A stretch of 64,000 nt of DNA from Eledone cirrhosa (taxonomy: Eukaryota). Each line of letters opens with the position of its first letter. Position 1 is the first letter of the stretch. Shown piece after piece: positions 5,119-64,000 of the stretch. A program made the translations under genes and the position numbers. The stretch is taken from NCBI GenBank assembly GCA_964016885.1, contig OZ024741.1:147498001-147562000 (forward strand), given 5' to 3'. The notes under the pieces are model-generated. The model saw nothing but the letters and a program-made list of their open reading frames with translations. It ran no database searches and was not told where the DNA came from.

Positions 5119-5125
5119 GATAGAG

Positions 5126-5166: not shown

Positions 5167-5404
5167 TGTTTCTTTATTAGCCACAGGGGCACAAAAGAAG
5201 GGGACAAATACAAATGGGGAAGTTTACATACAATAAAAACGTGTAAAATGTTATCACAAATGCAATTTAAAAAGTTAGTCGATTTTCCCCAATGGGGGAG
5301 ACAGTTCATATGGGTAACACATACCCCCGAAAAAATGTGCAACCCTCAACTCCAGGAGTACGAAGAGTTTGTACTCCTTTCCTCTCCTCTTCCTTTTCCT
5401 CAAC

Positions 5405-8400: not shown

Positions 8401-8720
8401 GAAGGCTCCACCTTCACTACCGTCAACGTCTAGGACCACCAGTCGACCCTCCGGGTCCAGATGTACCGTCTGTGTTACGAGGCCCAGGTGTTTCCGCAGA
8501 AAAACGGCAACTCCGCCCCCACCCCCCGGTTGACAGAGAGATGCGTAGATCTCAAAGTCATCGAAGATGGGGGGGCCAGCTGTCGCTCGCTGTGGATCCT
8601 GGACTCGCAAATGGCTACCACATCCATACTGTGCGACCTGAGGTCGTTTAAGAGCTTGCCCTGTTTCCAGGGCATCCCCAGGCCGCGTACGTTCACACAT
8701 CCAACTCTTATATTGGCCAT
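5405..8720 (-). pseudogene. Tx1 ORF2: APE endonuclease plus reverse transcriptase (frameshifted, internal RT deletion near 7008)
   Basis: MANIRVGCVNVRGL, GDWN, SYLDRF, YSDH, GYWKLN, DGLPYEFY, RQGCPLS, YADD, CPRC..ETVAHAFIHC. The segment containing LDQSKAF is missing. Confidence 0.92.
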
Positions 8721-10741: not shown

Positions 10742-10903
10742 ACGAATATTTCGCCCCTGTAGGGGCGAAAATGATTTGACCCACCACCTGAAGGTCCAGA
10801 TGGGGGGTCAAGTTACACAATAATATAAAATTTAACTGAAAACTCACGTTTTTTTCTTACATAAATTAACGGAAACTTCTCCGCGAAGTTACACACGTCT
10901 GGT

Positions 10904-19647: not shown

Positions 19648-21320
19648 CGGGATTGCGGAAAGCGGTGTCGGCCTACGCCGATGACGTAACAGTAATGGTG
19701 TCGACGGCCTCGGAAATCGGGGCGATCGGCACCTTTCTGGAGGAGTACGAAAGGTTTACAGGGACTAAGCTGAACCGGGACAAGTCGATCGGTCTGCAAC
19801 TCGGCATGCGGAGGGGCAGATCGATGCCCTCCGGTGGCATCGTCGGGCGCTGGACGGAGGGCCCGGTGAAGTTGCTTGAGGTCTGGTTCGGACCAGACCT
19901 CCAGGTGGAAAAGAACTGGGGTGAGGTAACGAACAGGGTGTTTGCACTGACCCAGAAGTGGGCCGAGTGCAAACTGTCCCTGAAAGGTCGGGCGGAGGTG
20001 GCGAACACTTATATAGCGTCCGTCATCTACTACCGCCTGACCGTTGTGCCTTGCCCAGGGGAAACGCTCACCAAAATGGAGCGCGCACTCTTCCAATTCC
20101 TTTGGAAGAAGCGGGCTCCTATGGTGAGGAGATCCATCTGCTGTCAACACCCTTCGAAAGGAGGGCTGGGGATACCGTGGCTAATGATACGTAAACACGC
20201 ATTAAGGCTACGGCACCTCCAGGTATTCCTCACCGGTCAACCGGTGTGGGCCCCGTTTGTGAGGCGAGACTTTCCCAGACTCGTCTCGCTCACCGAGCTG
20301 CAATCCTGAGTCAAGCAAAGACCGAGAAAACTAGGCGCCTGGCACACCGAGTGTACCCAGGCGCTCACGGCTCTCTGGCAGGCGGAACCGGCTGTCAGTG
20401 GAGAATCCACCTCGTCATTCTATAGAGGGCTGGTGGTTAGCAGGTGCGACGACGCCCTCGGAGAAGCCCTAGGCATGGAGGAAGACGAACTGGCCAACCT
20501 GTTCGGTAGGACATTCAGCCCGGGACCCATGGATAACTTCCAGAGGTCCCTGGCCTGGCAGTGCTACCGAGGGGCTCTGCCCATTCGAGAAAGGCTCTAC
20601 AGACACGGGCGCCCGGGTAGGGACCCCTCGAAAAAGATCTGTCCCAGATGCGTGTGCGACGAGGAAACCGTTGCACACGCATTGGTACACTGCTCGGGCA
20701 TTGCCGATCTGTGGGGCTATGTCGAACAACTGCTGTCAAGGGTGGGACCGATCCGGTTGACCACCGCGTCTATTGTAACGATCAAGCCGCCTCCCCTCTT
20801 CAAAAACGAAGGAGAGGCGGTGTTTCTGTGCATAATAGCCATGGCGAAAGAGGTTGTATGGTGGACGCGTCTGAAAGGACTGAGGTCAGACACCTTTCTC
20901 TCTGGCCAACAACTGGTCCGTTTCTTCCGATATCATTTCGGAAGAAGGATCAGGATGGAGAGATAGCTGCTGCACCCCAGCCGTTTTTATGAAAGATGGG
21001 TGAAAGTAGCGAGAATAGCCCGTGTGAATGGGCCTTCACTCTACATCAGACTATAGGTGAGGAAGATGAAAGATCAAGGGAGCACCCCCTTTCTGTGCTC
21101 CTGAGGAGAAGGGTTGCACACTTTTTCGGGGGTGGGTGCGACCCCCCAAGGCGCCTCCTCCCTATTGAGGATTTTGTTATTAAATTTATTTTTGTTATAT
21201 TTTATTTTATCTTTATATCTTGTTATTGCCTCCTCCTTATTGAGGACGCCTTTTTATGTAAACTCCCCCCATTGTACTTGTCCCACTTTTTGATGCCCTG
21301 GTGGCAAATATAAAGAAAGT
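19648..21320 (+). mobile_element. 5'-truncated Tx1 copy
   Basis: YADD, LSLKGRA, CPRC..H..C, 3' UTR, then a degenerate TATC tail at 21321-21354. Confidence 0.92.
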
Positions 21321-21354
21321 TATCTATTATCTATCATCTATCTCTATCTCTATC

Positions 21355-24300
21355 GGACGTACGGTAGATCGCTGGTAAGTTTTTGTAAAATTTTCCATAC
21401 AAAAACAGAATTCATTGTGTAAAATGTTATATTGTTTGATAGATTAACACCCAGGGTGAATTGTCAGCTGGGTGATAATCTCAGTTTTCGCTCCACAGGG
21501 GCGGAAATTTAATTTAAAAAATTGACAAGTTTTAAAAAATGTTCCTAACTTTAACAATGTGTGACTTACAACGAACGCTAGACTGCGAGAAGAGAGGGAA
21601 AGAGACAGATATAAACGTTATATCTCCCTCTAGTTCCATAGAAGTATCTATGGAAACGAACAACAACAAAACTTCGTTTCGTAAAGAAATGGATATTTAC
21701 ACAACAATAGATGAAAATAACAGCCCACAACAGACACCAAAAAATAAGAAAATACAGAAATTGAAACAATTGACACAACTACAAACGAAAAAACCAACAA
21801 CAACAAAATCGAAAAAACAACATTCGCACAGACAGTGATAAATAAAACAGAGTACAAACACATCGACATAAGCAACTCCAAACAAATGTTGACCGATGCA
21901 AAATAATTCATAACCTTTGAAGAAAAGTGTGGGTTTCATATAAACTCACCCTTGCAAATTAAACGAGTAACAGTTCGAAGGACAGTAACCTTCCGAACTG
22001 TTTCAAATCAAACGAAAAAACCGGTATTCCTCAGTCAAGGACAAATTGAAACAACCCTGAAAGAGGCTCTGTCGGACATTGATTTTATGCAGAGGGCCAG
22101 ACTATATGGAAGTGTTTCGGTACTTTTTACAAGCGAGGCCCTCGCACAAAAGCATTCTGTTACACCAGTGATCACAAAAGCACACACCTTTTTCCCTACT
22201 TACATGGGAAAAAGAACTCAAAAGATTAAAATAAATAATATACCACCGAACATCAACATTTGGTGGATCTTGGCCGGTTTTATAGAGCCATAAAGTGATA
22301 CAATTCTTTCGGTCAGGAAATCGACCAGACAAAGGTGGGCAGGGACAAATTTGGAAATTCTGATACAAATGACACCAGAAAGAATTTCCAAAATCCTCGA
22401 AAGAGTGCTGGTCGACAACCAGAACTACATCAACATCGTAACTGGGGGGGCAGAAAGCCTCACTGTCTTCGATGTGCAAGCACATCACACCTAAAAGCCT
22501 CCTGCCCTTTACAAACAAATCTTTTTTTTTAAAAGTACTTTTACCAACACCAAAACAATCACCACCACAACCACCACCACCACCACAACAACAACAACAA
22601 TAACAGACGAAACGAGCAAACACACCAAAACAAACAGCCACTCAACCAACAACAGAAAAAAACAGAGACAACACCCCTGAAGAACACAGCCCCACCCCAT
22701 CTCACTCCATCAAACACTACCACAAACACACACACCGAAACACCACCACCACACAACACACCCCTACATCACACTCCTGACGATGATTATTCATCGACGG
22801 ATGAAGCTGCTTCTCCTTCTTTAAGTGAAGAAGAGGGAGAGCCGCGGAAATCTAAAAAACAAAAAAAGAGACACCACAAAACCACAAAACTCCAATCACC
22901 AACACCAACACACAACCACAGACCCAAACATAAAACACAAACAACACCACAGTTAAACATCCCCCTACAAGCAAACCCAACACTAACACCACCCCAAACA
23001 CAAGCACCCACCATAAAAAGAAAACTCCCGGACGAGCAACAAACTAAAACAACACAACAAAAACACAAACAACAATACGCTTACATCAACACAAACAACA
23101 AGAGTTTGATGGAGGTCATCTTCCAAAACCCCAAGGTGGAGACGGAGGGCAAAACTTTCGTCAAGGCAGAATCGTCTCCACGCCTTAAACTTATAAGGGT
23201 TTCTATGGAAACCTATAATGACCTGAAAAATAAATTTTCACAGGACGTGGGCAACCCCTGCCAGAAACCCATCAACCGCGTCCTGTTAAAATGTTTCCCT
23301 ACCCCACCCAACACCCCATCCAGCATCCAAATGGAGATTGAACAACCCGATCTCCAGGAAACGAAAAGGTAAGTGCACCTTTTCGTCCATTTTCTCCAAC
23401 TTTTCTTCACCAACATGGCTAGTTTACGAGTTGGAAGCGTAAATGTGCGTGGCCTAGGGATGCCCTGGAAACAGGGTAACTTTTAAACGACCTTAGGTCA
23501 CACAGTATGGATGTGATAGCCATCACCGAGTCCAGGATCCACAACAGGCAGCAACTAACCCCCATCTTCGACGACTTTGAGATCTACTCATCTCTCTCTC
23601 AGCCAGGAGGTGGAGGAGGAGTGGCTATCATGTTTCGGAAGAACCTGGACGGCGAAGTACAGCAACAAGTACACTTGAACCCGGAGGGTAGACTGGTAGT
23701 CCTAGACGTGAACAGTATTGGAGGTGGAGCCTTCAGACTGGTGGCCGTCTATGCCCCGACCGGGCAATCGCAATCACGGCCAGACTTCTTTAAGCGTCTA
23801 GAGTCTTTTCTGGAAACGTCTCGCTCCTTACTTTTAGTGGGGGACTGGAATGGTATCCTAGATGCACGATGGGACTATGTGGGAGCATGTCCAGTAGAGG
23901 GGGGTGCAACAGCCTCAAAATTTTAATCGGCCAATGACAACTGGCCGATAGGCATCGACTGGATTTCCCGACTGCACCACAGTGGACGTGGGCAAACCGC
24001 AGTGGGACATCTAGATCGTATTTAAATAGGTTCTTCATTAGAGAAAGGGACAAGGAGATGTTAAGCTGTCCACGAATGCACATGGTTGCCTATTGAGATC
24101 ACAAATTAGTCGTCTGCTTAGTCAACCGTGATAGAACACATAGACAAGGACCCGGATACTGGAAGCTGAACGTGTCGTTGCCGGCACGTAAAGCTTACAG
24201 TGAACGCATATGTAGTCTAGTCAAGCAACAGTTAACGGGAGCCATCGTCAACAATAGATGGTGGTACTCGCTCAAGAAAGCAATTAGAATAGAATCGATA

Positions 24301-26975
24301 GGATTTAGAAGAGAGTTATCCTTAGAGAAAAACAAAATAGAAAGAGAACTAGTAGCCAAGGTAGAGGAGGCACTTAGAAGTGGCAACGCGGCTAGAGTGT
24401 TAGCGTCGAGAACGGCACTGGACCAGTTATTCGATGCGAAACAAGAAGGCTGTGTGGTCAGAAGCAAAACACGTGCTCTAGGAAACTAAGGAGCGAAAGC
24501 TGTCAGCTGGGCCCGAGTGGCGGAGGCGAAAAGTGGCAACAAGTCCACGATTCGGTCCTTGAAAGACCAAAACGGACGCGTGCTACTTGACCCCAAGCAA
24601 ATGTGCGAGGCCTTTCAGCAGCACTTTGCGCGACTGTTTAAGCAGAACGACAGTGAGCCGAACGGGGCAATGGACTTTAGTTCATACCTCGACGGCCTGC
24701 CGCGTCTCTCGAACACGGACGCCGAGTCCTGCGAAGACCGATCACAGCCACTGAGATACGGGACGCTCTGGGCCGCTGCGGGAAACGCAAGTCACCCGGT
24801 CTAGATGGTCTACCCTATGAGTTTTACATAGACATGCCGGACTTGTTCTCTGGCGTTATGGAAGCCGTCTACTGCAATTGGCAGCAGAACAGGAGAATTC
24901 CCAGTTATGCAGGCAAGGGCGTAGTAACGCTGATCAGGAAAGACGAGAACAAGGGGGACGAAATTAACAACTTCAGGCCCATAACTCTGCTCAACACAGA
25001 GTTAAAGATTTTGGCCAAGGTGCTAGCGACGAGGTTGGCGCTTGTCGTCGAGAACCTGGTAGGAAAAGCGCAAACGTGTGCAATCCCGACCAGGTAAATA
25101 CACGACAACCTCCACCTCATGCGATACATCATAGAGAGGATTGGTAGTAAACCCGGCTTCGGTGGGGCTCTGATCAATTTGGATCAGTCTAAGGCATTCT
25201 ATAGGGTCGACCATCGATACTTGGAAGCGGTTCTCAAGGCGGCCGGTTTCGATCCCGTTTTCAGAGGCTGGATCGAGGCGATGCACACCAGCATCTGCTC
25301 GAGGGTCAAGGTGAACGGCTACCTATCGGAGCCGTTCGCAATCACGCGTTCCATTCGACGAGGGTGCTCTCTCTCCTCCATTCTGTATGTATTGACTATA
25401 GAGCCACTACTGCGGAAATTGGAGCTGTTGCAGGGCATCTCTCTAGAACCGGGACTGCGCAAAGTGGCGTCGGCTTGCAACTCGGTACGTGGAGAGGCAA
25501 ACCGATGACGTCCGACAGCGTCGTTGGACGTTGGATGGACGGACCGGTGAAATTGCTCGGGGTCTGGTTCGGTACAGACCTCCAGGTGGAGAAAAACTGG
25601 AACGAAGTCACGGCCAAGGTCTTTGCGCTCACCCAGAAGTGGGCAGAGTGCAAACTGTCCTTGAAAGGTCGAGCGGAGGTGGCGAACACTTTCATAGCGT
25701 CCGTCATCTACTACCGCTTGACTGTCGTGCCTTGTCCCCGTGAACACCTCGCCAAGATGGAACGCATGCTCTTCCAGTTTCTGTGGAAGAAGTAGGCTTC
25801 GCTGGTGAGGAGATCCGTCTGCTGTCAGCACCCTTCCAATGGAGGGCTGGGAATGCCGTCGCTGATGATGCGCAAACTTGCGCTGAGGCTGCGGCATCTC
25901 CAGGTATTCCTCACCGACCCCCAACCGGTGTGGACACCGTTTGTGAGACAGGCTTTCCCACAGCTCGTCTCGCTGACGGAGCTGCAGTCCTGGGTCAAGA
26001 AAGACCGAAAACGATGGGCGCCTGACACATTGAATGCGCTCAGGCGTTCACAGTCCTCTGGCAAGTGGGCGCAGCAATCAGTGGAGACTCCACTTCGACA
26101 TTTTATAGAGGGAACGTACGTTACAAGGGCGACGACGTGCTCAGAGAGACTCTGGGCATCGAAGACGTTCAGCTCACCAGTCTGTTTGGTAGGACTTTCC
26201 GCCCGGGACCTATGGACAACTTCCAGAAGTCCCTGGCCTGGCAGTGCTACCGAGGAGCTCTACCGGTTCGTGACAAGATCTACAGGCACGAACGCCCCGG
26301 CAGGGATCCTTCTAAGAGGACGTGTCCAAGATGCGAGCAGGACATTGAAACCGTCCTGCACGCAATAGTACACTGCCCGGGCGTAACCGACCTGTGGAAC
26401 TATGCAGAACAATTGCTGTCGCGTATGGGACAAATCCAGTTGACTGCCGAGTCCATAGTAAGGATCAAACCGCCAGCCTCTTTCAAAAACGAAAGAGAGG
26501 CGGTTTTCCTCTGTACAGTGGCTATGGTGAAAGAAGTTATATGGTGGACGTAATTGAGAGGACTGAGGACAGATGCCTTTCTCTCCGGACAACAATTGAT
26601 TCCCTTCTTTAAGTATCACTTTAGAAGGAGAATCAGAGTGGAGAGAGAGGCACTGCACCCCAGTAAATTTACTGAAAGGTGGGTGAATGAAGCGAAAATG
26701 GCCCGAGTGATTGGGCCTTCTCTGTTTATAAGCCTGTAGGTTGAAGAAGAGAGCAAAAGGAAGAAAGGAGCATTTGCACAACACGCTCCTGGAGTTGAGG
26801 GTTGTTCTATCGACGGTGTATTAAACAACCCATTTGTAGTGCTTCCCCCCTATTGGGGATTTCGATTGTTGTAATTGTTTGTTTTTATATTTTTTACACG
26901 ACTGTATGCAAAATCCCCGGCATGTCTTTGTATTGTCCCCTTTTGTTGTGCGTCCTTGTGACAAATAAAGAAATA
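21355..26975 (+). mobile_element. Full-length (decayed) Tx1 copy flanked by TATC repeats
   Basis: 5' UTR, ORF1 (CLRCASTSHLKASC knuckle), ORF2 from ATG near 23415 to 26739 with APE/RT motifs (YADD region deleted near 25475), AATAAA at 26964, TATC tail 26976-26996. Confidence 0.95.
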
Positions 26976-26996
26976 TATCTATCTATCTATCTATCT

Positions 26997-27561
26997 GCTG
27001 TCGCGTATGGGACAAATACAGTTGACTGCCGAGTCCATAGTAAGGATCAAAGCGCCAGACTCTTTCAAAAACGAAAGAGAGGCGGTTTTCCTCTGTACGG
27101 TGGCTATGGTGAAAGAAGTTATATGGTGGACGAGGTTGAGAGGACTGAGGACAGATGCCTTTCTCTCCGGACAACAATTGATTCCCTTCTTTAAGTATCA
27201 CTTTAGAAGGAGAATCAGGGTGGAGAGAGAGGCACTGCACCCCAGTAAATTTACTGAAAGGTGGGTGAATGAAGCGAAAATGGCCCGAGTGATTGGGCCT
27301 TCTCTGTTTATAAGCCTGTAGGTTGAGGAAGAGAGCAAAAGGAAGAAAGGAGCACTTGCACAACACGCTCCTCGAGTTGAGGGTTGTTCTATCGACGGGG
27401 TATTAAACAACCCATTTGTGGCGCCTCCCCCCCCCCCCCTATTGGGGATTTCGATTGTTGAAATTGTTTGTTTTTATATTTTTTACACGACTGTATGTAA
27501 AATCCCCGGCATGTCTTTGTATTGTCCCCTTTCTTGTTGCGCCCTTGTGGCTAATAAAGAA
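26997..27561 (+). mobile_element. 5'-truncated Tx1 copy in tandem, with (TATC)n tail 27562-27590
   Basis: Near-identical to 26415-26975, AATAAA at 27553. Confidence 0.93.
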
Positions 27562-27889
27562 ATCTATCTATCTATCTATCTATCTATCTAGAAACATATC
27601 TCTATATTTTTCTATCTATATGTACACACACCCATGTACCCACAAAGAATCGAGAGGAGTCTTTAGTTGTGTCAGGGGCCTGGCAACTCCTTTAGTGTTT
27701 GTAATCTGCATAATAAATGCACCCAGTTAACTCTGAAAGATCAGTAGATCCATTTGAGTACTGATTGGATTGAGGCAGAATGTCGAATCCTTTCTAGCAG
27801 GGAAAACGGATATTAAACGATGATGAGGCGGATGAAGAGGAGGAGAAGGGGGAATATGAGGAGAAGGAGGAATATGATGATGATGATAT

Positions 27890-29015: not shown

Positions 29016-29089
<74 letters not shown>

Positions 29090-29091
<2 letters not shown>

Positions 29092-31320: not shown

Positions 31321-31434
31321 ATATAACTGTATACTATCAGACTTCATATATAGGTTCGATTAGACCGTCTTCCGAAGAAGACAGTTTAATCGAACCTATG
31401 TATGAAGTCTGATAGTATACAGTTATATAACTGC
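31315..31434. repeat. 120-bp near-perfect palindrome (58-bp arms, CGAA loop)
   Basis: gcagttatataactgtatactatcagacttcata..gtcttc CGAA gaagac..tatgaagtctgatagtatacagttatataactgc, with 3 mismatches. Confidence 0.92.
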
Positions 31435-31702: not shown

Positions 31703-31716
<14 letters not shown>

Positions 31717-32245
31717 TTTCGTATCTCCAAAGAAATACCGTTTTAGGAAGCCGTAGCTATGCAAACACCGGGGGGATAACGCCCTCTGGTGATGTCCAGC
31801 AGAAGCAAGGGGGACAAGCGTTTCAGGCTTAATTGGCCTTCGTCAGGACGGTCCCTCCCACCGCTTGCGACTGCTAGACTAGAAGACAGGCGAGAATATA
31901 TACTTTTCTCGTCTGTGTAAATGAGGTGATTAATCTCATTTGCATATGAAGCTGCATAAGTTGGCTCAACTTATAATAAAAAAGAAATAGGATTTCGCTT
32001 CAAGCATAGCTTCAGCCTGTCTTCTAGTCCAGCAGTCGCAAGCGATGGGAAGGACCGTCCTGACGAAGGCCAGTTAAGCCTGAAATGCATAGACGGTTGT
32101 CCCCCTTGCTTCTGCTGGACATCACCAGAGGGCGTTAGTCCCCCGGTGTTTGCATAGCTACGGCTTCCTAAAACCGTATTTCTTTGGAGATACGAAATAT
32201 TTATATATATTGTATAAAGCTATGCTTGAAGCGAAATCCTATTTC
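31703..32245. mobile_element. Inverted-repeat element with hammerhead motifs (Penelope pLTR-like, non-autonomous)
   Basis: About 180-bp arms (31711-31890 and 32016-32207), an extra 29-bp inverted pair (31984-32012 and 32217-32245), TA-repeat flanks. Confidence 0.75.
32053..32098 (+). ncRNA. Minimal type I hammerhead ribozyme
   Basis: Helix I gaccgtc/gacggtt, core CTGACGA, helix II aggc/gcct, GAAA, palindromic helix III ATGCAT, NUH triplet AUA (cleavage 3' of 32091). Confidence 0.85.
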
Positions 32246-32832
32246 ATATATATATATATATATATAACTCCGTTTTTTAATTTGATATATATATGTGGGG
32301 GGGGGGGGGTGGAAAAGGAAAATGTCTCTTGTATTCCTGGAATTGTGGTCATTATTGGGCCTGGAAGCCATGAGTAGCGCTTTTGTTCCGTGTATGAACA
32401 TAAATACTATAATATATATATATTTCACAAACATATTTTCTTTTAAAGTTTGGCAAAGAAACAGAATATTACTTATTCCATTCAGAAGTGATACATATGG
32501 CGACAAGAAACGACGCAAAGAACGGCTCTCCTACCTAAACATAATATTCTCACCGAAAACTGCCCTCTTAACACATGTCAGATGGATTACAATATTCATT
32601 ATTGCAAATACTTTCACTATTCCCTGACTTGTAGAACCAGTTTCAATATAACATCCCTTTAACGAAGTAAATCTGATTTTCGCCAACAAACCACGGGTAG
32701 ACATGAATGATAAAAAATAATAAATCACTACATCCCGTCGGCATCACATTAAGTACACCCCAAATTCTATAAACAGCAATATACACACACATATACACAC
32801 AGAGTGAAAAGAAATCACATTATTTCGTATGA

Positions 32833-33010
32833 ATTGGCAGTATCGGCAGAAGGTCGGACGCCATGCTTTGCAGCATAGAGGTGCGGTCCTTTACGGTCTG
32901 AGTTCAAATCCCGCTCAGGTTAACTTTGCCTTTCATCCTTACGGGGTTGATAAAATAAAGTACCAGTAAGTACTGGGATAATTGCTGGCCTTGTGCCAAA
33001 AGTAGAAACA
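32833..33010 (+). mobile_element. tRNA-derived SINE (family 1), 5'-truncated, 14-bp TSD
   Basis: A-box-like tggcagtatcgg, B-box gagttcaaatccc, core ctttgcctttcatccttacggggt. TSD attatttcgtatga at 32819 and 33011. Confidence 0.9.
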
Positions 33011-34319: not shown

Positions 34320-37300
34320 GCTATGGTAACATCTATGGATGAAGTGTGTGATAAAACTGGTTACTGTTCCAAAATAGAACATTGCCCAGAAAATCCCGAC
34401 TGTCATCTATGCACAGAACCCAAGAACTCCTTCGAAACCGATGGGTTGAATGTGGTAAATGTCGTGTTTTCTGTCCTTCAATGTGCCAAACTTTCGAAAG
34501 ATCCCAGGCAAAAAAAGAGACACCATATTTCTATGATGGACTCTGGGAAATGGTCCAACTACCAAATTGGTACTTTCAGTGACTGGACTGTGTGTCTGCC
34601 TCTCTACCATTGCTGTTCAACTACAACAACAAAAACCGACGACCGTCTCTTCTTCTACACTTGTTGCTGAACAACGGCAAAAACCGACGACCATGGTTTC
34701 CTCTACCATTCCCTGTTGAAGAATATCAACAACAACCGCAACGATATGTCTCCCGTTACTTCCTCAACAACAACAACCGACGACCTAGTCTTCCCCTACC
34801 ATTCCTGTTGAAGAACAACAACCGCAACCCATCAATACGACAAATGATTTCTGCTTTAAGCCGAGAAATGGCAGGAATCAAATCAATCATTCGTGTAGAA
34901 CATCACAATGAAAGATCTTACCGGTGTACCTTGCTAAAAAATCTCCCTGTTGCTCTTGCCGAACCTAGATGCATTGAGAAAGCCACTGAATCTGTCAATC
35001 ACGAAGTAATTGCCATTGGTGTATCAGAAACGATAGCTGATCTTCAGACATTGCTGCCAGCTCATCCAAAGACCTAGACTGTGCTCCCCCAAAAGATGCT
35101 CTCTGCCTTGGTCGACCAGATCCAAACCGCAGACTAATTAGTCTTTTCAAACTCTACTGAGGCTCGTTCATACCATTTAGCCTCTGATAAAGCTAGGCGT
35201 GAAAATTGGATTACCTTTGGAACACGCCCTGACTACCACCTGATGTACATTCAAAGCTACGTTGCTGCAGCTTCCTTAAATCGCAACTCAGCACAACATG
35301 AAAGCTTCAGCCTACGTGACGATGGGCAAATATAGAAGTTTATTAAGCTGGTGAAACATGGAAAAGAGATACCAGCTGGTCTGAGCACACTGTACCCACA
35401 ATAGCTGGCAATGAAAAAGCTGTGGGAAACTAAATCAGAACAAACGGCCATCCCCTACATATCATCATAAACTGAAATCAAGCTACAAATTGTTGTCCTT
35501 AAACTCTATGCAACAAGATACATCTTTTTGATTCTTACGTCGAAAGTATCGACCCTGATTTCATTACAGACACGGAAACATGGGCATATTCCTTACTCTG
35601 TGATGGGGTTTCAACTTGTTTCACAAAGACCGTGGTGGTGGTGTGATGTTCTATGTTCATTCAAACTTTTCAACAATTCCTTGCTTTGCTTTGAACAAAT
35701 CACAAGAAGTATTTTTCTGCGATATACGTATGGCCATGTCAACATTGCTACTTGGAGTTGTTTACTGCCCAACAAGAAGTGACAACACTTTGGATCCACT
35801 CTTTACCACTACTCCTGAAATTATTAGTGTTACTACTGAGGAAACTTTAGGTGACTCTGATCATACTATGATCATTGCCAATCTGTCTCTTATGGGTAGT
35901 AACAAAAATCACAGCCATCGCCCAACCTGGCTTGAATTTTACGACTCTGGAGATGTGAACACTATACTTCAGAACATTCTGAACTCAATATGGACAGGAT
36001 GTGCAGCATCAGTAACACATAAGCACAAAGAATAACCCAAAGGTGCAATTTTGGAGACTGCAGCAGTCAGACTTGCCAGGAAAGAACGCTGTAATGCTGA
36101 ATGGGAATACAAACTGAATAAATCAGAAATCAATATAAAAAAAGCGCAATATATCATCCAACCATCTGAAGCAGATGACAAAAAGGGCAGAGCTTGAATT
36201 TGAACAGCACATAGCAACCAGCCCTGACAGTAAGGTGTTCTGGAAATATGTACATTTAAAGCAGAGACCTCAATCTCCAGTTGGTCCTCTTCACAATCCC
36301 GACACAAACCAGATTACTGATGATCCCAAAGAATGCACAGAACTCATTTCTGAATGATATGCAGGCATTTTTACTGTTGGAAACCAAATCTTACCATCTC
36401 TACTGTCGTCCAGTCAGTATTACTAACTGCATTTCCAAACTGATGGAATCATGTGTCAGGGAAACACTCTGGAACTTCTGGAATTCTCACAGCCTTATCC
36501 GGCCCTTGCAATCTGGATTTATCCCTAATTCCAGCTGCTGTGATCAACTTATCAAGTTTCTTGAAGAAATCACCCGGATCACTGATGGCAGCTCATGGGT
36601 GGATGTTATTTACCTTGAAGTGCGGTGGATTGGCAGTATCAGTAGAGGGTCGGACGCCATGCTTTCCAGCATAGTTACGTCCCTTTACGATCTGAGTTCA
36701 AATCCCGCCAAGGTTGACTTTGCCTTTCATCCTTACGGGGTCGATAAAATAAAGTACCAGTAATGCACTGGGTAATTGCTGGCCTTGTGCCTAAAGTAGA
36801 AACAGTTATTTACCTTGACTTTGCTAAAGCTTTTAATTCTGTTCCACACAAAAGACTTATGGCAAAACTCTCTGCAATGGGTGTAAAAAATTATCTTTTT
36901 AACTGGTTGAAGTCCTTCATTCTCAGTCGAAAAGAGGTAGTCACGGTTCCAGGACAGCATTCTTCACCCTATGAGATGTCATCTGATGTACCACAGGGAT
37001 CTGTTCTTGGTCCCCTTTTGTTTGTTGCATATATTAATGAATAGATGCCAAATTAAAGAATTCCACAGTGCTGAAATATACAGATGACATCAAGCTGTAC
37101 CTTTAGATAAAAAGAACAGATCCTGAACACTACAGATCTTTCCTGCAAGCAGACCTGGACACAATGCAACAATGGATCATGGACTGATAACTCAAGCTGG
37201 CTGTGGACAAGTGTACCACCATGCATTTTGGGAGGGAAAACCCATCATCCCCATACTCCCTCCACAACACTAATATTAAGAAAGTCTTCTTGTGAACATG

Positions 37301-38048
37301 ACCTGGGCATTAGTCAGCAGCGATTTACGTTGGACAAAGCACATCTCTAAAATTGTCAAGAAGGCCGAGGGTGTTTTGGTATCATTCAGCAAGACCTTTG
37401 TCAGCCACTCTCCAGATATCTATTTAAAGCTGTATATAGCTATGGTGCGGCCACAATTAGAATTTTCATCACCAGTCTGGAACTCCTATCTTTCTCAGAA
37501 CATTGACCTCTTGGAAATTGTTCATGGACGTGCAACCAAGCGAATACTCTCCATCAGGCATCTACCATACTCTGAACGCTTTACTTCCCTTGGTATGAAT
37601 ATGTTGAAGCTCTGACATCTGGCAACTGACTTGGTAAACACCCACAAAATTATTAACTATCTTGCCAACAACAACCCTGAGTACCTTTTTGATTTCCATG
37701 TGTCTAACACACATGGGCATGCCCACAAAGTCAGAAAACAGCACAGCTCCCATGTTTTCGGAAACCTTTTTTCACGCTCAGAGTTGCTGAAGCATGGAAC
37801 AGACTACCTGCATCAGTTGTTAGCTGTCGAGACACTGCATCATTTAAAACCTCCATGCTTCCTGAGATTCGCCAACACTACACCTGATATCTCCCCTCTA
37901 TACACACGCACACATGTATATCATGACTCATACACTATTCACTTCCCTGACATTTGTACATTATTCTATGTACTATACATGCACCTGTGATGAGTTGTAG
38001 TGCACCTGAGCACTGTACACAATAATTTCATTATTATTATTATTATTA
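34320..38048 (+). mobile_element. CR1-clade LINE, near full-length, decayed
   Basis: Frameshifted PHD-like CHLC..WVECGKC..LQC in the ORF1 region. APE DRGGGV and LGDSDH. RT RPVSITNCISKLME, IYLDFAKAF, VPQGSVLGPLLF, YTDD. 3' stem-loop near 37998-38015 and (ATT)n tail. Confidence 0.85.
36619..36804 (+). mobile_element. SINE family 1 inserted in the CR1 RT domain, 14-bp TSD
   Basis: TSD gttatttaccttga at 36605-36618 and 36805-36818, duplicating the VIYL codons. Confidence 0.93.
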
Positions 38049-39909: not shown

Positions 39910-40097
39910 ATAATTGTTTCTACTTTTGGCACAAGGCCAGCAATTATCCAGTGCCTTACTGGTACTTTATTTTATAGATCCCCGTAAGGATGAAAGGTAA
40001 AGTTAACCTCGATGCGATTTGAACTCAGACCGTAAAGGGACGTAACTATGCTGGAAAGCATAGTGTCGGACCCTCTACCGATACTGCCAATTCACCT
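39910..40097 (-). mobile_element. SINE family 1
   Basis: Reverse complement of the family consensus. Confidence 0.88.
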
Positions 40098-50074: not shown

Positions 50075-50696
50075 TTTCTACTAGAGGCACAAGGTTAGCA
50101 ATTTTGGGGAAAGGGAAAGTCGATTAAATCAACCAGTTTGTGACTGGTACTATATTTTATCGACCCCCATAAGGATGAAAGGCAAACCTAACCTTAGCAG
50201 TTAGCTTTGCCTTTCATCCTTATAGAGTCGATAAAATAAAGTACCAGTCACAAACTGGGGTCAATTTAATCGACTCCCCCCCCCCAAAAAAAGAAAGTGT
50301 TGGCCTAGTGCCTATATCAGAAACCATTGTGGATTGGCAGTATTGGTAGAGAGTCGGACGCCATGCTTTCCAGCATAGTTACGTCCCTTTACGATCTGAG
50401 TTCAAATCCCACCGAGGTTGACTTTGCCTTTCATCCTTACGGGGTCGATAAAATAAAGTACCAGTAATGCACTGGGTATTTGCTGGCCTTGTGCCTAAAG
50501 TAGAAACAATTATTATTATTATCATCATTGTTGTTATTATTATTATTATTGAGCAGGAATAAAGTATCAATATAACATTATTATATTTTTTATTATGTTT
50601 TATTATGTTTCATCCTTACGGGGTCGATAAAATAAAGTACCATTAATACACTGGGATAATTGCTGTCCTTGAGCCAAAAGTAGAAACAATTATTAT
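50075..50696. mobile_element. Cluster of SINE family 1 copies (one minus, three plus, some partial)
   Basis: Repeated ctttgcctttcatcctta..gtcgataaaataaagtacca core with ATT tails. Confidence 0.85.
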
Positions 50697-50897: not shown

Positions 50898-50967
50898 AAT
50901 ATAAAGATGTTATATTCATACTTCGTTCCTGCTCCTGCTCCTGGTTGTTATTATTATTATTATTATA

Positions 50968-51174
50968 AAGGGCGGTGGATTGGCAGTATCGGTAGAGGGT
51001 CGGACGCTATGCTTTGACGCATAGAGTTATAGCCCTTGCCATTCTGAGTTCAAATCCTGCCAAGGTTAACTTTGCCTTTCATCCTTACGGGGTCGATAAA
51101 ATAAAGTACCAGTAATGTACTGGGTAATTGCTGGCCTTGTGCCAAAAGTAGAAACAATTATTATTATTATTATT
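50968..51174 (+). mobile_element. SINE family 1, full-length, inside an ATT tract
   Basis: ggcggtggattggcag.. through agaaacaattattatt, with ATT repeats on both sides. Confidence 0.9.
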
Positions 51175-56425: not shown

Positions 56426-57463
56426 AGCTGCAGTCCTGGGTCAGAAAAAGACCGAGGGATAGCGCTTGGAAACTGGAATATCTCCAGGCGCTCACTGCCC
56501 TCTGCCAGCTGGGCACTAGTATTGGTGGAACATCTACCTCGGCGTTCTATAGAGGACTAGTGGAGGGGAAGAGCAACATCGTTCTCGGAGAGATCCTGGG
56601 CGTCGAAGAAGATCAGCTGTTTGCTCTCTTCCGGAGAACTTTCAGCCCAGGGCCTATGGTTAACTTCCAAAAATCCCTGGCCTGGCAGTGCTACCGGGGA
56701 GCGTTGCCAGTTCGAGATAAGCTCTACAGGCACGGAAGTGCCGTCAGCCGAGCCTGTCCGAGATGCGCGCAGAACGACGATACTGTCATGCACGCACTTG
56801 TTCAGTGCCCGAGCATTGCTGACTTGTGAAGCTATGTCGAACAGTTGCTGTTGCGTGTAGGACTGATCCGGTTATCAACTGAGTCCATTGTGCAGATGGT
56901 CTCGCCGTCTTCCTTTGAGGAAGAAGGGCAGGCAGTTTTCATCTGCCTGGTGACCATGGTGAAAGAGATTGTGTGATGGACAAGGTTAACAGGGTTAAAG
57001 ACAGACACTTTCCTCTTCGGCGAATCCCTGATTAACTTTTTCAAGTTTCACTTGAAGAGGAAAGTCAGGGTGGAGAGGCAAGTGCTGCTTTCTAGCAAGT
57101 TTGTTGAAAGGTGGGTGAATGTAGCGAGAATGGTCTGACTGAACGGGACCACTCTGAATATACGTCTGTAGTTTGAGAGATGGAAAAATTGAGAGAGGGC
57201 GCTTGCGTTGGTGGTCAGGGTGGCCGTGGTCTTTTGTGTGGTTTTCGCCACGAGTAACCCTCGGAGGTTTCCCCCCTATTGGGGAATTTTTCATTGTTTC
57301 AATTTTCATTTTTATTGTTTATATATATATATGTTTCTAAGTCTTTTTTTCTTTTCTTATATAAATAATAAAAATATTTACACGCCCAAAACCCACATCG
57401 TACCGTCCTGTACCGTCTGTAATGTTTTTCTTGATGTCAGCCCTTGTGGCCAATAAAGAAATC
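56426..57463 (+). mobile_element. 5'-truncated Tx1 copy of a second lineage, with (ATT)n tail 57464-57514
   Basis: FQKSLAWQCYRGALPVRDKL, CPRC..H..C, AATAAA at 57452 followed by gaaatc(att)n. Confidence 0.9.
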
Positions 57464-57474
57464 ATTATTATTGA

Positions 57475-57514
<40 letters not shown>

Positions 57515-57516
<2 letters not shown>

Positions 57517-57912
57517 AGGCGGCAGATTGGCAGCATCAGTAGAGGGTTGGACACCATGCTTTCCAGCAGAGAGTTACAGCCCTTTATGATCTGAGTTCAA
57601 ATTCCGCCGAGGTTAACTTTGCCTTTCATCCTTACGGGGTTCGATAAAATAAAGTACCAGTAATGTACTGGGATAATTGTTGGCTTTGTGCCAAAAGTAG
57701 AAACAATTATTATTATGAATTGGCAGTATCGGTAGAGGGTAGGACGCCATGCCTTCCAGCATAGAGTTACGCCCCTTTATGGTCTGAGTTCAAATCCCGC
57801 CGAGGTCAACTTTGCCTTTCATCCTTATGTGGTAGATAAAATAAAGTACCAGTAATGCACTGGAATAATTGCTGGCCTTGTGCCAATAGTAGAAACAATT
57901 ATTATTATTATT
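57515..57912 (+). mobile_element. Two tandem SINE family 1 copies
   Basis: 57515-57716 and 57717-57912, each ending agaaacaattattatt. Confidence 0.92.
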
Positions 57913-58701
57913 GGTCTGTTCGGACGCTTTTTGCTCGCTCCCAGTAAGTCGCTTTATTTACCTGTTATAATTATTTGTTGTTAAATTGTTTTTGTTGTGT
58001 AAAGGATATAAGCCCTTGGACTATGCCCTGTGAAGGGGAAAGTATAATATTTGGGCCTTTTGGACCAAATATTTGAACAATATTTGAATATTTTACTTTT
58101 GAAAATTTCAAAAAAAAAAAAAATACATGGCTGAGCCACGGCCCTTTCTCATTTACCTCGTTTCTCATCCAACATGGCTGTACTTAGAATAGGCAGTATG
58201 TACGTGGCCTGGGGTTATCTTGGAAGCAGGGTCACCTGCTCAATGACACCAGGTCACTAAACATAGATGTGGTGGCCATCAGCGAGACCAGAATCTCCGA
58301 AACACGAGCCTTTGCACCGATCTTCGGCGGCTACGATGTATACGCATCCCCCAGCCATCTAGGATCGGGGGGAGGGGTTGCCGTGCTTTTTCAGAGAGGC
58401 TTGGATCTCGCCATACGGGTATTTTCCTGAACCCAGAAGGTAAGTAGGTGGTGCTGGACGTGACCGGCAGCGAAGGCAATGCTTTCAGGCTAGTAGCCGT
58501 CTACGCCCCAACAGGGGCAGGATGGCCAGATTTCTTCAGACATCTAGAGACCTTTCTTGGAACGTCCCGCTCTTTAGTGATAGTGGGCGACTGGAACGGT
58601 ATCTTAGATGCACGCTGGGATTATGTGGGGCTAGTAGACAGGGCAGGAGGGTGTAAAAGCCTCAAAAACATGCTTAGACGTTTTGAACTGTCTGATAGGT
58701 A
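57913..58701 (+). mobile_element. Tx1 lineage-2 5' fragment: 5' UTR, ORF1 deleted, APE N-terminus
   Basis: Starts right after an ATT tract. MAVLRIG.., AVYAPTG, GDWNGILD. Homologous to 60790-61350 on the opposite strand. Confidence 0.85.
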
Positions 58702-61700
58702 TAAACGAGCTGTGGGAAAACGTGCCTGGCGAACGGCGACCACACCTGTTCACCTTCAAGGAAGCACCAGAGATGTCGCAGCCTCAGCGCATGTTTGCGC
58801 ATCATCAGCCATGGCATGCCCAGTCCTCCACGCAACGGGTGTTGACAGCAGATTGATCGTCTGACCAAGGGAGCGCGTCCCTTCCACAAAAAGCGAAAGA
58901 GGCGCTCCACTTTGGTGAGAGTTAGGCCGGGGCAAGGGATGATGGTGAGGTGGTAGCAGATGACGGATGCGATGTACGCATTCGCCACCTCCGCCCGGCC
59001 TTTCAGGGACAGCTTCCTCTCGGCCCATTTCTGGGTGAGGGAGGCCACCCTGTTCGTCACCTCGTTCCAGTTTTTCTCCATCTGGAGGTCCGGTCGAACC
59101 AGACCCCGAGCAATTTAACCGGTCCGTCCGTCCAACGCCCCACGACGCTGTCGGACGGCATGGACTTGCCTCTCCAGGTGCCGAGCTGCAAGCCCACCGA
59201 CTTTTCCTGTTTTATCTTTGCTCCTGTCACCGCTTCGTATTCCTTGAGAGTGGTGCCGAGCATCTGGACGTGTCTGGTGCTCGACACCACCACGGTGACG
59301 TCGTGGGCATAAGCCGACTCGGATTTCCTGCATCCTAGTTAGCGTGGGACGCCCCTCATCGCCCCCAGTTTGTGCAGTAACGGCTCGAGAGCCAATGTGA
59401 ACAAAAAGGACGAGAGGGGACAACCCTGGCGGACTGAGCGCATGATGCTGAACGGCTGCCACAGGTGACCGTTCACCCTCACAACTGAGCAGATGTCGCC
59501 CGAAACTGGCTGCCTCTAGGACCGCCGCCAGGTACCGATCGTCGACCCTATCGAATGCTTTGGATTGATCCAAGTTGATCAGGGCCCCACCCGTTCCTTA
59601 ACCACCCTCTCTATGATGTATCGCATGAGGTGGAGGTTGTCGTGTATGGATCTGTCCGGAATGGCGCATGTCTGTGCCTCCCCCACCAGACCCTTGACGA
59701 CAAGCGCCAACGTAGTTGCTAACACCTTGGACAAAATCTTGAACTCTGCGTTTAGCAGTGTTATGGGTCTGAAATTATCGATAACATCCCCCTTGTTCGG
59801 GTCTTTTCTCAGCAGCGCCACCGCTCCCCGGCTCTCAAAACTGGGAATCCTCCCGTTCTGCTGCCAGTTGCAGTAGACGTCTGCCAAGAAGTCACCGAAC
59901 AAGTCTGGCATAAATGCATAAAGCTCATAGGGCAGACCATCCAAACCTGGCGATTTACTCCTCATGCAGTTAGCCATCGCTTCCCGTATTTCACCGGCTG
60001 TTATTGGCTTTTCGCAACACTGTGCTGCGGTCGAAGAGAGCCGAGGCAGTCCGTCGAAGTATGCACTGAAGTCTATGCCCCGATCCGGGCCGCCGCTTCT
60101 CCCGAACAGTTCAGCAAAGTGCTGCTGAAAAGCTTCACACATCTGCTCGGGTTCGAGCAACACGCACCCGTTTTGGTCAGACAAAGACCGAATTGTGGCT
60201 TTGTTGCCACGTCGCGCCTCTGCCACCCGGCCCATTGGACGGCTTATGTCCCCTCGTGTTTCAGAGCACACGCTCTAGCTCTGACAATGGAGCCTTTGTG
60301 TTTTGCGTTGAAGAATTGGTCGAGTGCCAATCTCGTCGCAAGCATGTCGGTTGCGATGCCTGTCCTAAACGCCTCTTCTAGCTTTCTGACTAGCTCTCCC
60401 TCTACTTTATTTTCCTCTATCACTAGTCCATTGCTAAACCTAATCGACTCTACTTTAATTGCCCTTTTCAGGGCGAACCACCACCTGTTGTTGACGACCG
60501 CTCCCGTCAACGCCCGCTTAACTAATACGCTAATCCGGTCTCTGTAGGCCTTGCACGCCAGGAAAGACGCGTTCAGCTTCCAGTAACCGGGCCCTTGTCT
60601 ATGAAGTCTGTCTATGTCGATCTCACATATCACAAATTTGTGGTCTGTGTAGTCGACTATTTTAAATTGTGGACAACTTATACTAGCCTTATCTAGTTCT
60701 CTGCAGAATACCCTATCGAGATACGATCTGGATGACCCGATGCGGTTTGTCCATGTCCACATTGGCACATTCGGGTGATCCAGTCGATACCTGTCAGACA
60801 GTTCAAAACGTCTGAGCAGGTTGGTGAGGCTCTTGCACGCTCCTCCCCTATCCACTAGTCCCACACAATCCCAGCGTGCATCCAAGATACCGTTCCAGTC
60901 GCCCACTAACACTAAAGAGCGGCACGTTCCAAGAATGTCTCTAGACGTCTGAAAAAATCTGGCCGTCCTGCCCCTGTTGGGGCGTAGACGGCTACTAGCC
61001 TGAAAGCATTGCCTTCGCTGCCGGTCACGTTCAGCACCACTGACTTACCTTCTGGGTCTAGGAAGATGGCCCATATGGCGAGATCCAAGCCTCTCCGAAA
61101 AAGGACGGCAACCCCACCCGCCGATCCTGGACAGCTGGGAGATGCGTATACATCGTAGCTGCGGAAGATCGGTGCGAAGGCTCGTGCTTCGGAGATTCTG
61201 GTTTCACTAATGGCCACCACATCTATGTTTAGTGACCTGAGGTCGTTGAGCAGGTGACCCTGCTTCCAAGATGACCCCAGGCCACGTGCATTTATACTGC
61301 CTATTCTGAGTACGGCCATGTTGGATGAGAAACGGGGCAAGTGATAAAGGGTCACTTGCCTTGATCGTGTGGTGAAGGGACAGTAAAACCGTCCCTTTGG
61401 CTGGTCATGGGTGTTTCCAAGAGGATGTCAGTGTATATCCTCTTGGTAATCGACCCTCTGAAGTCTCCAACTGCGTTGGTGAATTTTTGTTTTAAAGGTT
61501 TGTACTACTCTATTGAGATTTCAATGATGCTTATGTATAGCGGGAGAGTTGTTGGTGGGGTGTAGTAATTTTTTTCTGTGATGTCTGTGTTCTGCTTTAT
61601 ATATTGTATGAGTTCTTTTTTTACCATGTTTATGGCTGTGTACTTTTTTTTTTTGGGGGGGGGGGGGGGGGATGATTTTGTTGCTGTTTTCTTCTTGTTG

Positions 61701-63085
61701 CTGTTTGGTGTGTGTGTTTTGTTTTGTTTGCGTTGTTGGTGTTTTGGGTGATGCTCGTGGTGGTGTGGTTGCTGTTGGCGGTGGTGCTTGTGATGGTGAT
61801 GGTGGTGGTGTTGCTGCAAGTTTCCTCACTGCCTTTAACCCTCTTTGTGTGCCTTCGCTTTTGGAGGGTGAATCTAAGGGTTTTTTGTTTTTTTGTTTTT
61901 TGTGGCAGACCGTTTGCCACTTCACTCCCGTCTCAAACTCCATGTCTGATTCCGTGGTGTCTGGGAGGGGTATGTGCTCCACGGCTGTTGGTGGTGGTAG
62001 TGGAGCCCTCTTCGGCAATTGTGTTGCTGGTGTAGCTACTTCAAATGTAGCTATTGGTGTTGCCGCCACTGATGCTGCTACTTTAGTTGTCCGTAGCCTT
62101 GGTACGGGTGCTACAGACGTAACCCTCCTATTCACCGTGGAAGAGGCTTCTGCGTTTGTTTCCTGCCCTGCTCTTGGTAGCAGCGGACCAGGTATTGGAA
62201 AGAGAGGGGCCTTCTTCTTCGGTGTCTTCTGCGGGCAAAAGGCCCTGAGGTGACCTTTCGACCCACAGAGATAACATTTTGGACATCTTCCTTCTACGCT
62301 TATAGAGAATTGGAGTCCTTCTTCGATGTCTATGATATTGGGGATAGCGTCGATACATTCCTGGTCAGTTTGTATAAGCATTTGCATGCCTATACCTGAC
62401 CAGTTCTCTCTCCCTATTTTCTCTACTTGCAGCATGGTCGTCCTGTCCTCGATTCCAGCAAGGACAGACGTGGCCAGCCAAGGTATGGGCACGTCGGGTG
62501 GGACCTGGGTCACTTTGACCCTCAGTAGGAGGGCACCAAGACTATCTCCTCACTCTTTAAGGTTTCCAAAGAGTGAGACTTCGCTTCCTGGGTGGTGGCG
62601 AAAAGTACGTCTACTGTGGCGTACTTTCTGCCTCGGGTGATGTGGGTTTTGCGTGCCCAGACGCACCCCAAGGCCTTTTGGATTTGAGCCTCCGTGGCTC
62701 TCTCAACTCGATGTGAGATTTTGCTTACGGTGCGGTAAGTCACCGTCCGTAGCTGCTGGTCCTTGAAAAAATCGGGTAGAGGTTTAAGGGAGACTCTATT
62801 GGCGCTTCTTGTCACCATGGCCCTTGCGACTGCCATCTCTGTCATCATGGCCCTTGCGACTAACACTGTCTCGATATTTCGGGCGACACCTGCAAAAGAA
62901 GTGGTCCTTTTTCAGCAGCACCACTATTGTTGCCGCTACTGGTCTTACTGGTGGTGCTGAGATCGCTATTACAGGTATCGATGTCATTGTTGATGTTTTC
63001 ATTGGTACAGTTGTTGGTGTTGTTGTTGTTTTCGTTGATACTGTTGTTGTTTTCGTTGATACTGTTATTGTGGCTGCCTTTTAGC
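58702..63085 (-). mobile_element. Tx1 lineage-2 copy (ORF1, APE, RT), both ends truncated
   Basis: CYLCGSKGHLRAFC knuckle, MAVLRIGSINARGL, YTDH, GYWKLN, SPGLDGLP, DQSKAFDRV, degenerate YAHD. Confidence 0.93.
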
Positions 63086-64000
63086 AAATGTACTGGGGGC
63101 GCAGTACTTCTCTCTCCACCCTCACCTTCCTTTCCATGTGAAATTTGAAAAAGTTGATGAGGGATTGGCCGAAGAGAAAAATGTCTGTCTTCAGTCCTTC
63201 AACCTGGTCTACCATACAACCTCTTTTTCTACTGCCGCCAAACACAGGAAAATGGCCAAAAGAAAGCGGCGGGTCGATCTTCACTATGGACTCTGTTGAT
63301 AGCCAGATCCGTTCTACACACGACAACAGCTGTTCGATATAACCCCACAAGTCAGTAATGCACGGACACTAGACAAGGGGGTGCAGAATATTTTCGTCAC
63401 TCTGCACGCATCTCAGGCAGGTCCGTCTGACAGCACTTCCGTACCTGTAGAGTTTATCTTGAACTGGCAGTGACCCCCCCCCCCCCCCCCCGGTAGCAAT
63501 GGATTTTTGGAAGTTATCCATGGTACCCTGCTCAAAAATCCTCTAGGACAGATTGGTTAGTTCGACTTCGTTGATGCCCAGAGCCTCTCCGAGAGCGTCG
63601 TCGCACTTGCCCATCCCTAATCCTCTATAGAACTTGAGAGTGGAAGTTTCACTGACCACATTTTCCCCCTGGTAGAGGGCAGTGAGTTCCTGGCAACATT
63701 CCAAATGCCAGTCACCCAGTCTTGGTCTCTTCTTGACCCAGGACTGCAGCTCAGTCAAAGTGACGAGCTGCGAAAACGCCCGTCTGACAAACAGCGACCA
63801 CACTTGTTCACCGTTTAGACAGAATATCTGGAAATGCAGCACCTCAGTGCATGTCTGCGAATCATTAGCCACAGTATGCCCAGCCCTCCGAGTAGAGGGT
63901 GCTGGTAGCAGATGGACCGCCTCATCAATGGAACCTGTCCCCTCCACAACAATTTGAAGAGGCGTCATTCTAACTTGGCAGGGCGCGGACGGGGTCAAGG
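63086..64000 (-). mobile_element. More diverged Tx1 ORF2 C-terminal fragment
   Basis: ELQSWVKKRPRLGDW, FYRGL..CDDALGEALG, WGYIEQLLS. Continues beyond the window. Confidence 0.85.

Follow-up and report, generated by a model that had tools for sequence, protein, structure and literature searches.

A tRNA-type SINE and a Tx1-like LINE with ATT tails and a common 22-nt 3′ end in Eledone cirrhosa

The stretch considered here (the window) covers 64,000 nt of Eledone cirrhosa, positions 147,498,001 to 147,562,000 of contig OZ024741.1 (assembly GCA_964016885.1), and consists of repeat-rich eukaryotic DNA with many decayed long interspersed elements (LINEs). Eleven pieces of one LINE group were mapped in it, designated below by letters. 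At 56426-64000, the 3′ end of one of these LINEs, tailed by ATT repeats, is followed by two ATT-tailed short interspersed elements (SINEs) and then by the 5′ end of another copy of the LINE. The explanation favoured here, which we regard as probable, is that this decayed Tx1-like LINE, or a close ATT-targeting relative of it, drives the neighbouring SINE family as a LINE-SINE pair.

Anatomy of the locus and of the LINE group

The locus is composed of the following features:

56426..57463, plus strand: piece A, the 3′ third of open reading frame 2 (ORF2) and the 3′ untranslated region (UTR) of the ATT-tailed Tx1-like LINE
57169-57171: ORF2 stop codon of piece A
57440..57461, plus strand: 22-nt 3′-terminal signal, a G-x-C / 5-nt loop / G-y-C hairpin followed by AATAAAGAAA, common to the SINE 3′ ends in register
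57464..57514, plus strand: (ATT)n tail or target tract of piece A, doubling as the 5′ flank of SINE 1
57515..57715, plus strand: SINE 1, near full length, with a tRNA-type head (body 57515-57705, three-unit ATT tail 57706-57714)
57716..57912, plus strand: SINE 2, lacking about 9 nt at the 5′ end (body 57716-57897, five-unit ATT tail 57898-57912)
57913..58141, plus strand: 5′ end and 5′ UTR of copy B, homologous to the 5′ ends of the TATC copies F and I, with ORF1 missing after it
58142..58702, plus strand: ORF1/ORF2 boundary and N-terminal endonuclease of copy B, with an ATG at 58174, interrupted by frameshifts and a stop and cut off ahead of the hairpin loop
58705..63075, minus strand: piece C of the ATT lineage, comprising ORF1 without a 5′ UTR, an endonuclease whose loop carries WTWTNRIGSSRSYLD, and reverse transcriptase (RT), inverted relative to piece A
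63077..64000, minus strand: piece D, the 3′ part of ORF2 of a third lineage, lacking both 3′ UTR and tail and joined directly to ORF1 of piece C

The relatives with which these pieces are compared are tailed by TATC repeats instead:

5167..10902, minus strand: copy F, the full-length TATC comparator, with TATC tracts on both sides
19648..27590, plus strand: tandem array H-I-J of the TATC lineage, a TATC tract joining each copy to the next

Piece A is 68.5-70% identical to the TATC copies F and I, and its 3′ terminus, AATAAAGAAATC, passes into ATT repeats, arranged over 57464-57514 as three units, one GAT interruption and 13 units. SINE 1 aligns with six other SINE copies at 85.7-89.7% identity. 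The stretch 57913-58141 gave no match when the window was searched against itself with blastn, and it was therefore tested directly by anchored alignment. Its first 205 nt scored against the 5′ end of copy F as none of 2000 shuffles did, and against that of copy I better than 1993 of 2000, and the anchored score was equalled by none of 3090 real non-LINE windows. Thus, the order described in the sequence-only reading, in which the LINE 3′ end is followed by (ATT)n, two ATT-tailed SINEs and a 5′ end of the same lineage exactly at 57913, is confirmed.

The endonuclease piece of copy B is identical to piece C at 478 of 528 nt and 150 of 173 amino acids. At 58110-58175, the 5′ UTR is followed by a run of A and a short stretch opening with ATG, and then at once by the ORF1/ORF2 boundary; ORF1 may have been deleted or spliced out, making copy B a non-autonomous or ORF2-only derivative. 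A full-length relative to confirm its putative ORF1 start, searched for with ORF1 of piece C, was found among none of 7999 candidates. Motifs resembling splice donors (GTAAGT/GTGAGT) occur near the 5′ ends of B (57944-57949), I (21375-21380) and F (about 10845-10850, minus strand), and in copies I and F a pyrimidine run ending in CAG lies about 90-120 nt beyond the motif, which suggests a 5′ UTR intron.

Pieces A and C are the halves of one element, split by an inversion. Measured against copies F, H and I, the end of piece C and the start of piece A are separated by 11 nt, the boundary falls on the same residue, 661, of the related protein P0007, and both pieces occupy the same place in separate trees. 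As A and C are one element, the endonuclease loop, which is in C, is tied to the ATT tail, which is in A, and the block 56426-58702 is inverted relative to C, either in the genome or in the assembly. Twin priming was rejected as an account of the split, since the inverted piece is found not upstream but downstream, beyond the tail and the next element. Piece D, joined to ORF1 of piece C at 63075-63077 without UTR or tail, is 69-70% identical to A and C, and was rejected as the 3′ end of C because this identity holds where D and C overlap.

Regarding the class of the LINE, Exo_endo_phos and RVT_1 Pfam domains are present in pieces C and F, and a zf-RVT domain was found by Pfam scan in copies F, H and I, piece A being placed there by alignment to that region, while zf-CCHC in ORF1 stayed below the cut-off (E 0.0034 in C and 0.86 in F). 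The relative P0007, 58-79% identical to the window pieces in its main matches, scored 174 bits against human L1 ORF2p and 88 or less against R2, in a comparison with PDB entries, which yielded none of the other LINE clades. None of the named Tx1 references (Tx1L, Keno, Kibi, Koshi) occurred among 86 protein hits; the named hits were frog RTs with ZCCHC3-like domains, which we take to be linked to Tx1 ORF1, and the sole invertebrate name among them was an Octopus bimaculoides gene model covering 12% of a LINE query (P0088). A search of the ESM Atlas gave only unnamed clusters. The group is called Tx1-like here on the strength of its domain layout and of a close relative nearer to L1 than to R2, which is a working label and not a formal assignment.

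The TATC copies form a clade with 99-100% support, with A, C and D outside it. TATC follows all five 3′ ends of this clade and precedes four of five 5′ ends; in the ATT lineage, ATT is met at the one 3′ end and the one 5′ end available, both at the same locus. In Tx1 families, the criterion for a target preference has been its presence in more than 20% of flanks (PMC4494074; this and the other cited papers were available in part, and statements on them refer to those parts). The sequence-only reading had inferred a tail or target switch between close sister lineages. The difference between TATC and ATT is real and the lineages are related, but their closeness amounts to about 70% DNA identity and 153 of 251 identical endonuclease residues (61%). 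The term sister is also loose, since A/C group with D in DNA trees, and rooted protein trees give no settled order for A, D and the TATC clade.

A second complex rearrangement, within the TATC lineage, lies at 1909-5123, where piece E (1974-4498, plus strand) sits inside the 3′ UTR of the minus-strand copy G. About 23 nt from the start of piece E recur at its end (4497-4519), a pattern that integration of a circular or template-switched intermediate would leave.

The common 3′ end and the target of the SINE

The 3′ ends of the LINE and of the SINE were compared through a weight matrix built from 11 SINE 3′ ends alone and ranked over 127,947 non-SINE positions of the window. Five of six LINE ends ranked first, third, fourth, sixth and seventh, and the sixth, copy H, which carries a 2-nt insertion, ranked 23,372. 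As the LINE ends are homologous to each other, these ranks count as one event, for which our own arithmetic gives about 3 in 1000 after allowing for about 20 registers and three LINE families. An alignment of the six LINE and 11 SINE ends needs no gap in 16 of its 17 rows, which all keep the same register relative to the tail start. When the last 24 nt of SINE 2 served as query, the end of piece A was the best non-SINE match on both strands, with a score of 13 against 10 for the next, and with another SINE end it tied at 11 with two TATC ends. Over the 22 nt, piece A is identical to the 11 SINE ends at 13-16 positions.

The same 22 nt are preserved between the LINE lineages. Piece A matches the TATC copies F, I and J at 19-21 of these positions, compared to 65-69% identity with many gaps over the remaining 3′ UTR; with copy H it shares only 12 of 22, because of the insertion in H. 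Judged from the sequences, this conservation points to selection on what would be a terminal cis signal. The candidate hairpin has three pairs and a five-base loop, its outer pair being G-C in 16 of 17 rows and its inner pair C-G in all 17. The middle pair is G-C in nine SINEs, C-G in five LINE ends and U-A in one LINE end, and is unpaired in two SINEs, which amounts to two compensatory states at a single pair. A motif count over the window gave 16 matches (six LINE and ten SINE ends), 15 of them with the middle position paired, against a mean of 0.19 in shuffles, a count that is descriptive only, as it was designed after the sequences had been seen and misses one of 11 SINE ends.

As for the head of the SINE, an A box was matched in the three copies tested, and a tRNA B box, GTTCAAAT, is visible in all seven aligned copies, while ARAGORN and Rfam gave no hit to the SINE. 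It presumably resembles octopus SINEs. Apart from SINE 1 and SINE 2, the following young copies are present:

32830..33010, plus strand: isolated SINE whose 14-nt duplication begins with ATTATT
36622..36804, plus strand: isolated SINE within the RT of another LINE; its 14-nt duplication begins with GTTATT, and the peptide VIYL occurs on either side
39915..40096, minus strand: isolated SINE with no clear duplication and CTATT upstream
50329..50508, plus strand: SINE directly following an older SINE whose 3′ end has one ATT
50609..50688, plus strand: isolated, 5′-truncated SINE with a 12-nt duplication starting at TTATT
50967..51156, plus strand: SINE between two ATT tracts

TTATT lies at most 21 nt upstream of six of the eight young SINEs, against a background of 4.3%. 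Four of the eight stand in or after repeat tails and are therefore not independent; among the four isolated copies, TTATT is found upstream of three (P about 3e-4). These three carry duplications, of 14, 14 and 12 nt, starting at the TTATT, and the one at 36622 is unambiguous because a peptide of the RT of the host LINE is repeated. In a control of 3000 random pairs, 27 reached at least 11 nt and 23 at least 13 nt. TATCTATC was found within 30 nt upstream of none of the eight. Thus, the isolated SINEs are themselves ATT-directed.

Runs of at least three ATT units occur 11 times in the window, and all of them adjoin a retroelement: by our own assignment, seven are SINE tails, one is a SINE 5′ flank, two are parts of the tail of piece A and one is the tail of a CR1-like LINE. 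Concerning age, the mean identity of SINE pairs is 89.2% (21 pairs), similar to the 90.5% of the single LINE pair B-C. The 3′ halves of two older SINEs are arranged at 50075-50323 as an inverted repeat with its centre near 50195; a younger SINE comes after the tail of the right arm.

A LINE-SINE partnership and its alternatives

Known LINE-SINE pairs are marked by shared tails with stem-loops, and it is by analogy with them that protein binding and mobilisation in trans would be expected here (PMC3747384, PMC4176376). Binding of the ORF2 protein to the short 3′ hairpin, whether on LINE or on SINE RNA, would be followed by a nick at a TTATT/ATT site and by reverse transcription primed on the ATT tail. 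Every insertion would then leave a new ATT tail as the target for the next, and such self-made targets would give the stack of LINE 3′ end, SINE, SINE and LINE 5′ end, in parallel with the stacking of the TATC lineage in its own tails (F-G, H-I-J). As the SINE is ATT-directed and shares the LINE 3′ end, the partnership explains the array, which was most likely built up by a LINE and a non-autonomous partner inserting into one another's tails, although the order in which its members were inserted is hidden, all the duplications lying within pure repeat. We infer that the ATT lineage targets ATT as a family, and that this lineage is the driver rather than an unseen ATT-targeting relative. A fuller proposal, offered tentatively, is that an abundant and long-lived tRNA-SINE family rides a microsatellite-specific Tx1 LINE through a stringent 22-nt hairpin, both of them building and reusing ATT repeats in a process that feeds itself, while TATC is the target of sister LINEs equipped with this hairpin; RNA recognition would thereby be uncoupled from DNA targeting.

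Several observations weigh against the partnership. For the ATT lineage, a single rearranged locus supplies the only 3′ end and the only 5′ end, and the length of the LINE duplications cannot be measured for comparison with the 12-14 nt of the SINE. The similarity of the ends is short and stops at 22 nt, only 4-8 of 23 positions being identical further upstream. The three-pair hairpin is weak, appearing in the minimum-energy fold of five of six LINE ends but two of five SINE ends, with z below -2 in just one of 11 folds, and the G-C/C-G swap of its middle pair is a single evolutionary event. Moreover, the eight young SINEs fit copies F, G, I and J (14-17 of 22) as well as they fit piece A (15-16 of 22), so that only the ATT tail points to the ATT lineage, and an ATT tail is likewise found on a CR1-like LINE of the window (38030).

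How the two LINE lineages came to differ in target is a related matter, on which the endonuclease bears. The motif taken in the sequence-only reading for the β-hairpin loop of the apurinic endonuclease (APE) domain has held up, since in a profile alignment it falls on the loop grafted into the L1-EN chimera LR1, which identifies it as the βB6-βB5 loop; no solved structure was found with a single endonuclease sequence as query, but the profile search matched one. In both lineages, nine residues separate the T and S anchors of the loop, as in L1. The S/T difference within it does not track the target, because TATC copy E also has T, and the other two differences are single-base changes seen in the decayed piece C alone, which differs by about 10% from copy B, a copy that stops before the loop. 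One relative carries the same R-I-G as the loop of piece C, and this change may be genuine. With 61% identity, or about 98 differences in 251 residues, and a loop difference taken from one decayed copy, the endonucleases are not a minimal pair for specificity mapping, and the idea of a natural pair for this purpose is not supported.

A possible explanation, compatible with the partnership though somewhat doubtful, is that the TATC/ATT switch took place with little or no change in the endonuclease: a relaxed nuclease would nick a YTATY-type site, and the pairing of the RNA read-through tail with the nicked strand would select the repeat, the tail thereby acting as template for its own target. 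This possibility also concerns the loop swap suggested in the sequence-only reading. Both repeats contain TAT followed by a pyrimidine, YTATY lies upstream of seven of eight young SINEs (background 7.6%), and the tail of the SINE at 36622 reads GTTATT, which is the sequence of the target and fits priming by pairing. In addition, loop grafting changed nicking but not the integration preference of L1 (PMC1950540), and SART1Bm also enters variant repeats, for which RNA-target annealing has been proposed (PMC7265360). However, swaps of the whole endonuclease domain do change the targets of SART1 and TRAS1 (PMC7265360), the Tx1L endonuclease is sequence-specific in vitro (PMC1950540), and at 40 endonuclease positions here both TATC copies agree and the ATT lineage differs.

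The ATT tail could also be an accident of one locus, due to chance, tandem insertion or misassembly, in a lineage that is not ATT-specific. The two junctions known are at the same locus within the inverted block, and copy B is internally deleted and truncated. Nevertheless, two junctions of opposite polarity both meet ATT exactly, the TATC clade is consistent at five of five 3′ ends, so that tails are family traits here, and the presence of SINEs that share this 3′ end and carry ATT tails implies a driver directed at ATT; we consider such an accident unlikely.

It is at least as improbable that the SINE was moved by another ATT-tailed LINE, its Tx1-like 3′ end being a relic or a coincidence. 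A candidate is the LINE at about 35500-38047, ending at 38029 and presumably CR1-like from its RT motif, which has a predicted 3′ hairpin of its own and an (ATT)6 tail:

38030..38047, plus strand: ATT tail of the CR1-like LINE, the rival SINE partner

With this tail and that of piece A, the window has at least two LINE types, unrelated to each other, that produce ATT tails. However, the two LINE types outside the Tx1-like group that reach a 3′ end within the window do not match the SINE profile, the best score in the last 135 nt of the CR1-like LINE ranking 2576 and that for the end of an RTE-like LINE 855, and three SINE copies have duplications of 12-14 nt, whereas insertions of the CR1/L2 type usually have short duplications or none. 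In favour of such a partner, the molluscan SINE partners reported so far are CR1, CR1-Zenon, L2 and Nimb (PMC11481361).

Least likely of all, and indeed quite improbable, is the suggestion of the sequence-only reading that ATT specificity evolved in the LINE so that the tails of an independent SINE would receive it without harm. Insertion into other transposons is on record for Tx1 families (PMC4494074), copy B directly follows a SINE tail and seven of the 11 ATT runs are such tails, but the shared 3′ end and the TTATT-directed duplications of the SINE itself would be left unexplained, and at the end of piece A the SINE follows the LINE tail, not the reverse. The arrow seems likely to have been drawn backwards, as of the two LINE junctions that at 57913 alone could represent LINE insertion into the tail of a SINE, and, with all ATT runs adjoining retroelements, an ATT-targeting element lands there by default.

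Other elements of the window include a LINE at 29089-31050 (minus strand), which we take to be RTE-like and which ends in (TAGA)n, the repeat of the TATC lineage in opposite orientation, beside a (CA)n tract. Palindromic elements, resembling miniature inverted-repeat transposable elements or foldback elements, lie at 12308-12712, 31315-31434 and 31704-32210, two of them flanked by TA-rich repeats, and a decayed Helitron with Helitron_like_N and Pif1 domains is found at 14216-18250 (minus strand).

Relation to known systems

Target switches among Tx1 relatives are already known, as Kibi inserts into (TC)n, Koshi into (TTC)n and the crocodilian Tx1 elements into (TTCC)n/(TTTC)n (PMC4494074). These are likewise related APE-type LINEs with differing microsatellite targets; the difference here is that the targets are (TATC)n and (ATT)n, in an invertebrate. 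The question of specificity is the one addressed by the L1-EN LTx/LR1 grafts (PMC1950540) and the SART1/TRAS1 swaps (PMC7265360). The grafts concern the same βB6-βB5 loop between conserved T and S (PMC1950540), but the loop of the present lineages differs by two single-base changes known from one copy.

A SINE tied to a target-specific Tx1 has its nearest parallel in the crocodilian SINEU and Tx1-Mar, where movement of SINEU by Tx1 was inferred from the same target and similar ages (PMC4494074). According to the available text of that paper, SINEU have U1/U2 heads, poly(A) tails and a Mariner target, and no LINE shares the SINEU-1 3′ end. The SINE of Eledone cirrhosa, unlike SINEU, has a tRNA-type head, an ATT tail and a 3′ end shared with the LINE.

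In this last respect, it resembles the UnaL2 and ZfL2 pairs (PMC4176376) and those of a 58-pair survey (PMC3747384), which have a common 3′ terminus, a small hairpin with conserved loop and variable stem, and a repeat tail. The known stringent pairs are mostly CR1, RTE and L2 (PMC4176376, PMC3747384), and the shared stretch is just 22 nt here. The survey includes three SINEs with L1-clade tails, and the word Tx1 is absent from its pair table, as far as this was available (PMC3747384). The molluscan SINE papers name CR1, L2 and Nimb as partners (PMC4824008, PMC11481361, PMC5786205, PMC4758252), and the available text of three of them has no mention of Tx1, that of the fourth having one, about SINEU. 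In the corresponding text on the repeats of O. vulgaris, L1-Tx1 is listed as active and the word target does not occur (PMC13282606). No report of a tRNA-SINE sharing its 3′ end with Tx1 was found in the literature as available, Repbase Reports, subscription papers and supplements being outside that scope.

The new part is thus likely to be a tRNA-SINE/Tx1-like pair with a shared 3′ tail and an ATT target. If true, a driver could be named for the SINE family, in a type of genome where SINEs can amount to about 12% of the DNA, as in O. vulgaris (PMC13282606), and ATT microsatellites would be explained as products of retrotransposition. It would also be an animal L1-group case of stringent tail recognition, which is rare in the 58-pair survey (PMC3747384), and its cis signal would be among the shortest for mobilisation in trans. 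Compared to the known systems, the same RNA hairpin with different repeat targets would offer a clean test between the endonuclease and the pairing of tail and primer, which bears on the engineering of site-specific LINEs.

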